Shown here piece after piece: positions 2,980-32,735 of a stretch of DNA of 64,000 bases (the stretch's first letter is position 1; each line of letters opens with the position of its first letter). Origin of the DNA: an uncultured Gammaproteobacteria bacterium. GTDB taxonomy: Bacteria > Patescibacteriota > Patescibacteriia > Magasanikbacterales > GWA2-37-8. The translations under genes and the position numbers were made by a program. Under the pieces are notes generated by a model. The model was not told where the DNA came from. It saw only the letters and a program-made list of their open reading frames with translations, and ran no database searches. Location: the NCBI GenBank assembly GCA_964407865.1, contig CAYOXC010000002.1, forward strand, positions 120,646-184,645. Direction: 5' to 3'.

Positions 2980-4170
2980 ATGGCTGAGTTTGTAAGAACC
3001 AAGCCACACGTCAATGTTGGTACTATTGGCCACGTTGACCACGGTAAGACTACTCTTACTGCTGCGATGTTGCAGGTTCTAACCGCTCATGGTATGAGCG
3101 CCCAGAAAAAGGGTGTTGATGATTTGGATAAGGCCCCAGAGTCAAAGGCTCGCGGCATTACCATTTCCACTGCCCATGTCGAATATGAGTCAGAAAAGCG
3201 TCACTATGCCCATGTAGACTGCCCAGGTCATGCTGATTATGTCAAAAACATGATTACCGGCGCGGCCCAGATGGACGGTGCTATTTTGGTTGTGTCCGCT
3301 GCCGACGGCCCAATGCCGCAGACTCGCGAACACATTCTCTTGGCTCGCCAGGTTGGCGTGCCTCACATTGTTGTTTTCTTAAACAAGGTTGATCAGGTTT
3401 CTGATCCAGAGCTAATTGATCTTGTTGAAGCGGAAATTCGCGATCTTTTGACAAAGTATGAATTTCCTGGAGATACCACTCCTATTATTCGCGGTTCAGC
3501 CCTTCAGGCTTTACAGAATCCGAATGATGAAAATGCGACAAAACCGATTATGGAGTTGGTTAAAACTTTGGATGAATATATTCCAGAGCCAGTTCGAGAA
3601 ACAGACAAGCCGTTCTTAATGCCGATTGAAGATGTCTTTTCAATCGAAGGCCGTGGAACAGTCGTTACCGGTCGTATTGAGCGCGGATTGATTCAAATAA
3701 ACGATGAGATTGAAATTGTCGGTTTGCTTGAGGAGCCAATGAAAACAGTTGTTACAGGTATTGAAATGTTTAACAAGCAACTGAAAGAAGGCCAAGCTGG
3801 AGATAATGCCGGCATTCTTTTGCGCGGTACCAAGAAAGAGCAAGTAGAGCGTGGTATGGTTTTGGCCAAACCCGGCTCAATTAAACCGCATACAGAGTAT
3901 GAAACTCAAGTTTATGTTTTAACCAAAGAAGAAGGTGGTCGACACAAACCATTCTTTAAGGGTTACAAGCCTCAGTTTTATATTCGAACCACTGATGTAA
4001 CTGGCGAGGTTTTATTGCCGGAAGGAACAGAAATGGTTATGCCTGGGGATACTATAAGTTTTATTGTTAAATTAATTAAGCCGGTTGCTATTGAGGAAAA
4101 AATGAAATTCGCTATTCGCGAAGGCGGAAGAACTGTTGGAGCCGGTGTTGTAACGAAGATTATTAAATAA
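2980..4170 (+). CDS. tuf: Elongation factor Tu
   Basis: [18 protein letters not shown] and NKVD GTPase motifs. 396 aa. Confidence 0.97.
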
Positions 4171-19881: not shown

Positions 19882-20856
19882 TTAAGGTGTCAGTTCAATA
19901 ATGGCTATTTCTGGCATGGCAAAAAAACGAAGAGGCGCTCCAGATTCTCCAGCACCAACAGAGGTATAAATCGGTATTTCTTTATAAATATTTAAACCGC
20001 GGTAGTATTGATTGGGTAGTTCTATTTGGGCATTTCCCAAAGGGCCTAAGAAAGGAATCCAGACCTGACCCCCATGTGTGTGTCCGGCCAGTACTAAATC
20101 TGGTTTAGGTAAATAATCTTGGTAGTAAAGAATGCCGTCAGGATTATGGCTAATAATAATCAAGGAAGTGTTTTTGTTTAATCCTTCAATTTGAGAAAAA
20201 TTTGGCGGGTGTTTCCAGATTTCATCAATACCGAACAGGCATATTTCTTGATTTTTAATATTTAAGCATTCAAGGTTATTGCGCAGTAAAGTGATGTCTA
20301 AAGCAGCCATCCGTTTAATTAAAAGCTCCGACAGATCAGCAGTATATTTTTGCGGCATAAATCTAACTGATCCACCAATACCATATTCATGGTTGCCCAT
20401 AATATAATATGACGGGTATTTGTCAGTAATAGTTTTTAAGGGTTCTAGATAAACACTTTCGTCAATAAACGTTCCTTCATTGTCAATTTGATCTCCGCCA
20501 AATATTACCAGATCCGGATTTATAGATTCAATTTTTTTTACAATTTTTTTAGACCACCAATCTTTTTTATATCTACCGATTTGGATATCACTAACAAAAG
20601 CAATTTTAATCGGTTTTGAAATTTTTTTAGTATTTACCTGTACTGCATTAATTCGTAAACAAAAGGGTTCAATTACAGTTGAGTATAGAGCTATTAATAT
20701 GCCAGCGGCAAGAATAATAATAATTAACGCAGATATACGATGGTGTTTGCCAAAAAATAAATGAGTTTTTTTTCGGTCGCGTAAAATAAAATAGATTACC
20801 AAAGTGGCATCCAAGATGTAACCGTAAATTATTATAAGAAGAAACATAGTTTTCAA
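19882..20856 (-). CDS. Membrane-anchored metallophosphoesterase (calcineurin-like)
   Basis: GDQIDNEG, GNHEY and GHTHGGQ motifs with an N-terminal TM helix. Confidence 0.85.
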   Translation of the reverse strand: MKTMFLLIIIYGYILDATLVIYFILRDRKKTHLFFGKHHRISALIIIILAAGILIALYSTVIEPFCLRINAVQVNTKKISKPIKIAFVSDIQIGRYKKDWWSKKIVKKIESINPDLVIFGGDQIDNEGTFIDESVYLEPLKTITDKYPSYYIMGNHEYGIGGSVRFMPQKYTADLSELLIKRMAALDITLLRNNLECLNIKNQEICLFGIDEIWKHPPNFSQIEGLNKNTSLIIISHNPDGILYYQDYLPKPDLVLAGHTHGGQVWIPFLGPLGNAQIELPNQYYRGLNIYKEIPIYTSVGAGESGAPLRFFAMPEIAIIELTP

Positions 20857-20934
20857 TATTTTACACTAAAATTAAGGTTAACTCAAGGAGTAACATTGAC
20901 ATTTATGTCTTAAAATGATAACATGTCGGCAATT

Positions 20935-21019
20935 GCCGAAGTGGCGGAATTGGTAGACGCGCACGACTCAAAATCGTGTTCCTTCGGGAGTGTGGGTTCG
21001 ATTCCCACCTTCGGCACCA
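20935..21019 (+). tRNA. tRNA-Leu (anticodon CAA), CCA-encoded
   Basis: Cloverleaf with a long variable arm. Anticodon loop cuCAAaa. T-arm GGTTCGATTCC. Confidence 0.85.
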
Positions 21020-21029
21020 CGTATAAAAT

Positions 21030-21053
21030 AATGCCCGGCTTTTGCCGGGCATT
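21030..21053 (+). terminator. Hairpin aatgcccggc tttt gccgggcatt after tRNA-Leu
   Basis: Perfect 10-bp stem. Confidence 0.5.
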
Positions 21054-21123
21054 ATAGGTGGTAAAGGTGGGAAGAGAACGGGAAAGGGAGAAAACGGGAG
21101 TTTTCTCTTTGTGGAGGAGGATT

Positions 21124-21168
21124 CACGGGAACCCGAAGCCTGCCTGCCGGTAGGCAGGGTTCCCGTGA
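21124..21168. repeat. GC-rich nested hairpin (cacgggaaccc ... gggttcccgtg enclosing cctgcc...ggcagg)
   Basis: Inverted repeat read directly. It sits inside a 150-bp GC-rich block. Confidence 0.6.
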
Positions 21169-21194
21169 AAGCGAACGAAGTGAGTGCGTGAGAT

Positions 21195-21210
21195 TTCCCA
21201 CCTTCGACAC
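21195..21210 (+). repeat. Direct partial copy of the tRNA-Leu 3' end (ttcccaccttcgAcac versus ttcccaccttcgGcac)
   Basis: 15 of 16 nt identical to 21004-21019. Confidence 0.7.
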
Positions 21211-21344
21211 AAATTTACTGTTGTAATTCACAAGTCAGCCCAGAACCTCGCTCCTGGCTAAAAATAGCTAAAAAAAGCAAAAAACATGGTTTGTTTACCT
21301 TGTTTTTTATTTTTTTTATGCTATAATAATAGCAACTTGTATTT

Positions 21345-32676: not shown

Positions 32677-32684
32677 CGTATAAA

Positions 32685-32710
32685 AAAGCCCGACTTTATG
32701 TCGGGCTTTG
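32685..32710 (+). terminator. Hairpin aaagcccgac ttta gtcgggcttt after tRNA-Arg
   Basis: Perfect stem. Confidence 0.55.
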
Positions 32711-32721
32711 TACGTGATTAA

Positions 32722-32735
32722 GCCAGGAGTCGAAC
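32722..32735 (-). repeat. Inverted 14-nt copy of the tRNA-Arg T-arm/3' region (gccaggagtcgaac is the reverse complement of gttcgactcctggc at 32653-32666)
   Basis: Exact reverse-complement match. Confidence 0.7.

Follow-up and report, generated by a model that had tools for sequence, protein, structure and literature searches.

The stretch of DNA analysed here, referred to as the window, comprises 64,000 nucleotides of contig CAYOXC010000002.1 (assembly GCA_964407865.1). Among its five tRNA genes, tRNA-Leu(CAA) lies between a metallophosphoesterase gene on the minus strand and a parA-parB pair on the plus strand, and is followed by a short block (positions 21057-21210) which is the subject of this report. 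The GC fraction reaches 0.51-0.57 over positions 21000-21200, compared with 0.27-0.38 in the flanks. It is practically certain that this block is a member of a real, widespread and structured family of elements tied to tRNA 3' ends. The family is apparently undescribed and is apparently hosted by Patescibacteria (Magasanikbacteria and relatives). The features of the locus were as follows.

20896-20924, plus strand: promoter-like site of tRNA-Leu, TTGACA-17-TAACAT, with a spacer resembling, by eye, that of the tRNA-Leu promoters of relatives
20935-21019, plus strand: tRNA-Leu(CAA) gene (ARAGORN; Rfam, 62.9 bits), whose positions 53-73 are the template of both element arms
21028-21039 and 21044-21055, plus strand: H1, a perfect 12-bp hairpin with a TTTT loop, between tRNA-Leu and the element
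21057-21079, plus strand: left arm, an inverted copy of the tRNA-Leu 3' end (complement of the T-loop, the T-stem 3' strand and the acceptor 3' strand)
21080-21085, plus strand: J1, the junction GGGAAA, nearly invariant in the core alignment
21086-21109, plus strand: hairpin HP1, made of GGGAGAAAAC, a GGGA loop and GTTTTCTCTT, with two G.U pairs at its base (match to covariance model R1)
21110-21121, plus strand: J2/3, a purine-rich junction with the family consensus TTGCTGAGGAAAG (aligned copies)
21122-21169, plus strand: hairpin HP2, a 13-bp stem with an apical CGAA loop split by a nested hairpin (21139-21158)
21170-21188, plus strand: HP3 region, AGCGAACGAAGTGAGTGCG, of the subtype found in loci L107 and L114
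21184-21210, plus strand: right arm, a conserved GTGAGAT junction and then a direct copy of tRNA-Leu from about position 59 to position 73 and beyond, including the 16-mer at 21195-21210

Several of these features had been listed in an earlier note on this DNA. The tRNA-Leu gene, the GC-rich block, the nested hairpin and the direct repeat of the tRNA 3' end are all present and were correctly placed. The hairpin following the tRNA gene exists as well, with a stem of 12 bp instead of the 10 bp given in the note, and the span originally delimited (20935-21344) includes the element, which ends at 21210, together with positions 21211-21344, which are merely the AT-rich upstream region of parA. The 16-nt direct repeat (21002-21017 versus 21195-21210), rightly considered as real, is identical at 15 of 16 positions; 0.06 such matches are expected by chance in the window and none of 100 shuffled sequences gave two, so that it is not a random match. 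With one gap, the direct copy at 21184-21210 reaches 22 identities out of 27 (0/1000 shuffles). The inverted copy at 21057-21079 had been overlooked; it is identical to the tRNA-Leu 3' end at 18 of 23 positions (0/1000 shuffles).

Pairing between the two copies (AAGGTGGGAA / TTCCCACCTT) closes the fold of 21057-21210, which is multi-branched with a four-way junction (z = -8.7 in the folding computation). The closing helix, consisting of acceptor and T-stem and then the discriminator base, contains 14 bp with 2 mismatches, and a similar helix is found in L117. The outer arms of HP2 (21122-21134 / 21157-21169) form 13 bp perfectly and enclose the inner arms 21139-21148 / 21149-21158; this nested hairpin is private to the window copy, where it represents a 21-nt insertion relative to model R1. 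Small open reading frames (ORFs) within the block (49 and 59 aa) are spurious. A coding block was also rejected at the family level, since indels between copies are not multiples of three. H1 (21028-21055) contains no T-run and was not called by the terminator scan, and because of this lack of a U-tract, co-transcription of the element with tRNA-Leu is probable.

Other copies of the GC-rich block were retrieved with an exact 22-nt motif from HP1, GGGAGAAANCGGGAGNTTTCTC, common to the window and L093. This yielded 42 metagenome loci, all on short contigs, and no viral loci; scans of viral contigs gave nothing, or chance terminators only. A tRNA gene detected by ARAGORN ended 50-79 nt upstream of the motif, on the same strand, in 33 of the 45 oriented copies, and several copies devoid of an upstream tRNA were second units of tandem arrays. 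Fifteen anticodon types were represented, from Glu, Gln, Ser, Asp, Leu, Val, Met, His, Ile, Arg, Gly, Phe, Trp and Asn tRNAs, so that the same core is found after at least 15 tRNA types. The flank of L102 is Magasanikbacteria-like. The window segment 21068-21172 matched covariance model R1 with 74.3 bits (E = 2e-19), and both arms were also confirmed. The organism is also present in the sequencing runs SRR14492171 and SRR14492173. Two Logan contigs, L001 and L002, in which this organism was assembled independently, start precisely where arm and core meet (window position 21080), as expected of a repeat with a shared core and variable arms in an assembly graph.

The elements are non-coding and rich in GC and in purines, and read in the tRNA sense they follow one plan. 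The tRNA is followed by the trailer hairpin H1, by a spacer of approximately acceptor-strand length, and by a left arm reverse-complementary to the tRNA's own T-stem 3' strand and T-loop and sometimes running on through the acceptor strand. The core is composed of GGGAAA, HP1, TTGCTGAGGAAAG, HP2 (of which two subtypes occur) and HP3, sometimes followed by HP4, and measures between about 30 and 190 nt across elements. It is followed by GAGTGAGAT or GACTTCGAATAG and by the right arm, a direct copy of the same tRNA that begins near position 59 and reaches at least the discriminator base. This arm covers roughly the last 16-25 nt of the tRNA and sometimes the terminator as well; a second hairpin, H2, often comes next. 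Tandem G.A is recurrent in the right arm. In most copies the acceptor complement of the left arm is decayed, and H1 is locus-specific and unlike H2.

The arms are specific to the tRNA that they accompany. Direct-copy scores averaged 12.8 for the neighbouring tRNA versus 6.7 for other tRNAs, the corresponding means for the inverted copy being 12.3 and 8.3, and control regions upstream of tRNAs displayed no arm match (0/75 inverted, 0/73 direct). The left arm of L120 is complementary to the T-loop and T-stem of its neighbouring tRNA at 14 of 14 positions. As a separate observation, the last letters of the L120 right arm are CCTCGAGCG, as in the tRNA-Gln acceptor of both L100 and L131, and the L120 tRNA itself ends in CCTCGGAAC; an earlier state of the tRNA 3' end may be preserved in this arm.

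The core alignment comprised 26 sequences. Pairing was maintained in 98.1% of its cells, eight pairs were changed on both sides, and the covariation score was 0.258 versus 0.101 in shuffles (0/500); when the alignment was slid as a control, pairing dropped to 38-62%. Two copies found independently of the motif (L107-E1 and L114-1) have a wholly different HP1 sequence that forms the same hairpin. With 42 other loci and this covariation, the block is neither unique nor lacking a conserved structure, and the alternative put forward in the earlier note, a small structured RNA element, comes close to the mark.

These structural data bear on the main rival explanation, according to which the family is a functional structured RNA derived from the tRNA 3' trailer. 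The four-way junction would then be a host RNA gene or a cis-element, present once per tRNA gene for reasons other than mobility, and the left arm would pair with the T-loop and T-stem, or the closing helix would mimic an acceptor/T minihelix, for tRNA processing, quality control, regulation or protein binding. The wobble pairs speak in its favor, as 58 G.T were counted versus a single A.C on the tRNA-sense strand (G.U in the RNA), and so do the two invariant basal G.U pairs of HP1, its GGGA loop of the GNRA type (25 of 26 copies) and the nearly invariant unpaired purine junctions. Hairpin expansions vary only at apical loops, as they do in many functional RNAs. The perfect complementarity of the left arm to the tRNA T-loop/T-stem, as in L120, and the tandem G.A of the right arm are also in line with it, as is the window H1, whose lack of a U-tract makes read-through plausible. 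Finally, the core is kept at orthologous sites across deep divergence: where flanking proteins are only 46-64% identical, cores and unpaired junctions are nearly identical, and H1 has diverged beyond recognition. Decay of the acceptor complement in most copies nevertheless speaks against a general minihelix mimic, and no Rfam family corresponds to the element. Unrelated cores sharing the arm architecture, described below, do not fit either. The patchy occurrence at the tRNA-Leu site of relatives, presented hereafter, argues against it as well, and on the whole a functional RNA seems possible, although less likely than the explanation preferred below.

A ParA search among genome contigs yielded no relative above 62% identity; loci of closer relatives were reached through homologous proteins and then through the contigs encoding them. 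The ParA homologues with 80-91% identity were annotated as Magasanikbacteria or Patescibacteria. In every relative fetched, tRNA-Leu(CAA) was found on the opposite strand, 70-170 nt upstream of parA, where it is divergent from parA; the block comprising promoter, tRNA and element is therefore inverted in the lineage of the window. An 11-nt imperfect inverted repeat (20820-20830 / 21212-21222) brackets the inverted block and could be due to chance.

Comparison of the tRNA-Leu locus among these relatives revealed empty sites in L083, L086, L087 and L095, the CCA of the latter overlapping the ATG of the metallophosphoesterase gene. The site is filled in L093, on the strand of its own tRNA, by a hairpin, an inverted copy, a homologous core and a 22-nt direct copy, followed by a truncated second copy; relative to the window, both core hairpins carry compensatory changes. 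In L088, the closest relative by ParA (91%), the left arm and half of HP1 are kept and a deletion then extends into the parA promoter. Because this copy is truncated, the element is dispensable. That four close relatives lack the element at this site, and that the closest one has only a truncated copy, is difficult to reconcile with a functional RNA, and the same holds for the fact that only two or three of the five window tRNAs carry an element.

Turnover was also apparent at other loci. Tandem arrays were observed, and L102 and L124 contain the same two units in swapped order. L129 and L135 follow the same tRNA-Ser and have flanking proteins 78-91% identical, and they differ in the subtypes of HP2, HP3 and HP4. 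Such arrays, truncated copies and swapped subtypes resemble the dynamics of repeats more than those of an RNA gene. Long perfect direct repeats are present in copies read as young (24 nt in L114, 51 nt at the tRNA-Glu of the window), and GC-rich mini-hairpins occur as nested insertions at various positions. The mini-hairpin pair CCCCGAAGGGG + TCCCTTTGGGA, for instance, is inserted in the HP2 loop of L101, L128 and L130, but in the right arm of L112.

The same comparisons bear on the idea of a decayed integration remnant, which the earlier note had proposed on the basis of the direct repeat. In its explicit form, the block would be the decayed attL/attR remnant of a single island inserted in tRNA-Leu by a tRNA-targeting tyrosine integrase. 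The direct repeat of the tRNA 3' end is what such a scar would leave, and the interval between the metallophosphoesterase gene, tRNA-Leu and parA does contain variable cargo genes in relatives, namely a reverse-transcriptase gene in L083 and hypothetical genes in L086, L087 and L093. These cargo genes occur without the element, however, and the same core recurs behind 15 other tRNA types, its arms corresponding to the tRNA in each case. The inverted copy is not predicted by an att scar, and no integrase remnant was found in the block, at the 42 loci or among the 20 window ORFs; phage or plasmid similarity is also lacking. The remnant hypothesis does not withstand these observations and is considered highly improbable. 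As regards the L083 cargo, the RVT_1 gene (positions 1-653) is located about 2 kb from the 3' side of tRNA-Leu(CAA), and no genes were called in about 1.6 kb of the intervening DNA. PMC13011429 reports no group II introns in Patescibacteria.

Searches for linked genes and known relatives were negative. An all-against-all ORF comparison of 43 loci revealed no recurrent neighbouring protein other than syntenic orthologues, and Pfam identified housekeeping genes only, without any mobile-element gene or integrase, among the 20 window ORFs. The block had no similarity to phages or plasmids in blastn searches. When the window and four typical members were scanned against Rfam 15, at gathering and E-value thresholds, only tRNAs were recovered, the next best hits remaining below 27 bits for cut-offs of 35-230. 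No description of such elements was found in the literature. The nearest report was PMC13011429, which describes group I introns inside Patescibacteria tRNAs (anticodon loop, 35/36).

A series of specific candidates was rejected. The element is located outside an intact tRNA and has no Intron_gpI match, which excludes a group I intron. A decayed ancestral tRNA on the minus strand was discarded because the right end is a direct 3'-end copy, its comparison with the reverse complement of a tRNA 5' end giving a score of 9 that was equalled or beaten by 107 of 1000 shuffles. A hammerhead ribozyme, evoked by CUGAGGA, is contradicted by the varying CUGA positions (CCGA, UUGA, CGGA, UGGA), by the presence of four helices and by the absence of an Rfam match. 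The likeness of GAGGAAAGUCC in type-A copies to CR-I of RNase P has no P4 partner, and both resemblances are regarded as coincidences. A simple long target duplication including the terminator can be maintained for few copies, since H2 resembles H1 only in L104, L113 and the tRNA-Glu element of the window.

Elsewhere in the window, tRNA-Glu(TTC) carries a second element of the same architecture, and a solitary arm follows tRNA-Arg. Their features were as follows.

63214-63286, plus strand: tRNA-Glu(TTC) gene
63338-63350, plus strand: left arm of the tRNA-Glu element, CAGGGAATCGAAC, whose final 11 nt are perfectly reverse-complementary to the T-loop and the start of the T-stem 3' strand
63351-63481, plus strand: divergent GC-rich multi-hairpin core of this element (z = -3.5)
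63482-63532, plus strand: right arm and H2 of this element, a 51-nt perfect direct repeat of 63270-63320
32715-32735, plus strand: solo inverted copy of the tRNA-Arg 3' end (18/21), beyond the terminator hairpin 32682-32709

The 51-nt repeat corresponds to the last 17 nt of tRNA-Glu and its terminator, and the full unit, from the tRNA through the element, covers 63214-63535. Its match to R1 is weak (E = 0.16). The same arm architecture was also found around other cores, in L009 (a Paceibacterota metagenome-assembled genome), in the first unit of L124 and in a copy of L136 with a 32-nt core. As these other core families share it, the arm architecture is the general feature, R1 being one of several cores. 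The tRNA-Arg copy is accompanied by neither core nor direct copy and may represent a precursor, a footprint or the outcome of a deletion. The tRNA-Val and tRNA-Met genes of the window have neither element nor arms.

Two further observations concern neighbouring material. In L136, downstream of tRNA-Ser(TGA) (2912-2997), a second tRNA-Ser(TGA)-like copy (about 3050-3150) has two GC-rich mini-hairpins, 29 nt in all, inserted in the anticodon loop; it was not called by ARAGORN and the insertion is too short for a group I intron. In L092 (ParA 89% identical), positions 30-160 of the spacer between the tRNA and parA hold an insertion of about 130 bp with inverted repeats ccccacacctaaa / tttaggtgtgggg at its ends, which looks like an unrelated element of the miniature inverted-repeat transposable element (MITE) type.

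The solitary arm of tRNA-Arg is relevant to a third alternative, in which the structures would be passive by-products of replication or repair. An arrangement X-H1-X' would be generated by fold-back or template switching, with the palindromic trailer hairpin and the quasi-palindromic T-loop (TTCGAA) as the sites; GC-rich mini-hairpins would accrete at the palindrome centre and gene conversion would homogenise the cores, all this without dedicated machinery or function. The geometry is suggestive: the segment that starts at T54 of the tRNA and runs through the left arm folds into a long, near-symmetric hairpin with H1 at its apex (-33 to -58 kcal/mol where a trailer hairpin exists), in which the spacer has the length of the acceptor strand and is often partly paired with it. 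The mini-hairpin modules CCCCGAAGGGG, TCCCTTTGGGA and TCCGCCAGCTGGCGGA found at differing positions, one of them in a tRNA-Ser anticodon loop, point in the same direction, and one HP4 loop exists in both orientations (CAAAG in L100 and its reverse complement CTTTG in L120). Left unexplained are a single core of about 85 nt with conserved junctions after 15 tRNA types, in genomes differing at the genus level or more, and the strand bias of the wobble pairs; moreover, three coordinated template switches would be needed for each new site. A purely passive origin is therefore judged quite unlikely. In the full read-through transcript of the window, the minimum-energy fold, which is a thermodynamic prediction only, joins the proximal tRNA 3' end to the left arm and the tRNA 5' strand to the distal right arm.

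The explanation preferred here, to which an even chance may be given, is that the family consists of non-autonomous, duplicative DNA elements with arms copied from the target. An element would be laid down at a tRNA 3' end by a DNA-level process which copies the end of the target, so that the arms would be templated at insertion, and the copying would be performed by a trans-acting enzyme or by template switching. The copy in direct orientation would arise like an att site or a target-site duplication, and the copy in inverted orientation by fold-back around the trailer hairpin. Tandem amplification, deletion between direct repeats and exchange of core modules between copies would follow. The element would be co-transcribed with its tRNA, as suggested for tRNA-Leu, and would fold as RNA in the tRNA sense.

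Several points weigh against this preferred explanation. Neither an enzyme nor an autonomous partner was found at the 42 loci or in the window. H1 is locus-specific and mostly unlike H2, so that a simple long target duplication covers few copies. Core conservation at sites with flanks 46-64% identical and a diverged H1 is more readily explained by purifying selection for a function than by selfish DNA, and the GNRA loop and the biased wobble pairs indicate selection acting on the RNA. Retrieval with an exact motif led to an underestimation of diversity and host range, and the conservation of HP1 follows in part from the way in which the copies were collected. In addition, we know of no transposition or integration chemistry that copies the target in inverted as well as direct orientation.

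It is also conceivable, if unlikely, that the element represents a new kind of tRNA-directed genetic element or RNA, since its arms can pair with both strands of the duplex from T-loop to 3' end, or with the tRNA. If this were true, it would be a structure-guided or RNA-guided insertion system which re-templates its guides from each target, or a tRNA-companion RNA which controls the maturation of the upstream tRNA through the alternative long hairpin. To our knowledge, no described family does either.

Whatever their origin, these elements deserve attention for practical and biological reasons. Patescibacteria genomes are tiny and streamlined, yet several per cent of their tRNA flanks appear to hold a conserved, structured element of 110-190 bp that is ignored by standard annotation. 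The elements break assemblies at arm/core junctions and give rise to pseudo-att repeats which may be taken for the borders of islands; the covariance model obtained from them is ready for annotation use. If they are mobile, their terminal repeats are built from the target in both orientations, which is unexplained by known transposons or integrases, and this phylum has a recombination hot spot at its tRNA 3' ends. Should they be RNAs instead, a new, abundant class of non-coding RNA would be linked to tRNA expression, and this in organisms with an RNA biology that already stands out through introns in tRNA and rRNA.

Resemblances to several known systems were considered. The element fails a defining feature of each of those to which it can be likened among MITE/REP/NIME families, att sites and cis-mobilizable elements (CIMEs), and folded att sites. 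With MITEs, REP/BIME, Correia, RUP, BOX and NIME elements (the latter bounded by dRS3), it shares a short, non-coding, multi-copy, hairpin-forming and modular or mosaic nature, the occurrence of tandem arrays, polymorphism among close relatives and the lack of a gene of its own. The terminal inverted repeats of such families belong to the element, whereas the arms described here, though inverted repeats, are derived from the 3' end of the adjacent tRNA and change with it. The elements occur strictly on the 3' side of tRNA genes and in the same orientation, and direct repeats of about 16 to 51 nt contrast with the fixed short length of MITE target-site duplications. No related autonomous insertion sequence or RAYT gene was found at the 42 loci or in the window.

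The att sites of tRNA-targeting integrative elements, and CIMEs, which lack an integrase and have att sites at their ends, have in common with the present family a direct repeat of the tRNA 3' end (16-51 nt) around a foreign segment of distinct composition, as well as tandem accretion at one tRNA. The differences lie in the association of one core with 15 tRNA types, in the extra inverted copy of the target, in the size (110-190 bp) and in the absence of an integrase, of arm-type sites and of phage or plasmid relatives. Casposons and their MITE derivatives also insert at tRNA 3' ends, and if the T-loop-like 9-mers are taken as terminal inverted repeats, L114 has a 15-bp duplication, a length in the casposon range. 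No Cas1 gene is present here, however, most copies do not fit a 14-15-bp duplication, and the host range is different, casposons being mostly archaeal.

The folded single-strand sites of integrons (attC) and of the CTX phage (the attP hairpin, with two inverted dif-like sites) resemble the elements in having inverted target copies about 100 nt apart, a stem recreating the duplex target and a variable centre. In both cases structure is more conserved than sequence, which in the present family was observed across core families. The GTTRRRY / RYYYAAC boxes of attC are not found at the outer ends of the elements, which consist of tRNA acceptor/T-stem sequence; AAC...GTT is present at the inner ends of the arms, and no integrase was seen. 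Moreover, the target extends from the tRNA T-loop to the 3' end instead of being attI or dif, and the arms vary with the target. With regard to t-elements or minihelix mimics and to small RNAs of tRNA 3' trailers such as 3'ETS-leuZ, a trailer-derived RNA would match, and in the window copy and L117 the closing helix is indeed acceptor plus T-stem followed by the discriminator base; in most copies, however, the acceptor complement is lost, and the T-loop is replaced by a junction of about 100 nt. Set beside all these systems, arms derived from the target in both orientations are the genuinely odd feature of the family.

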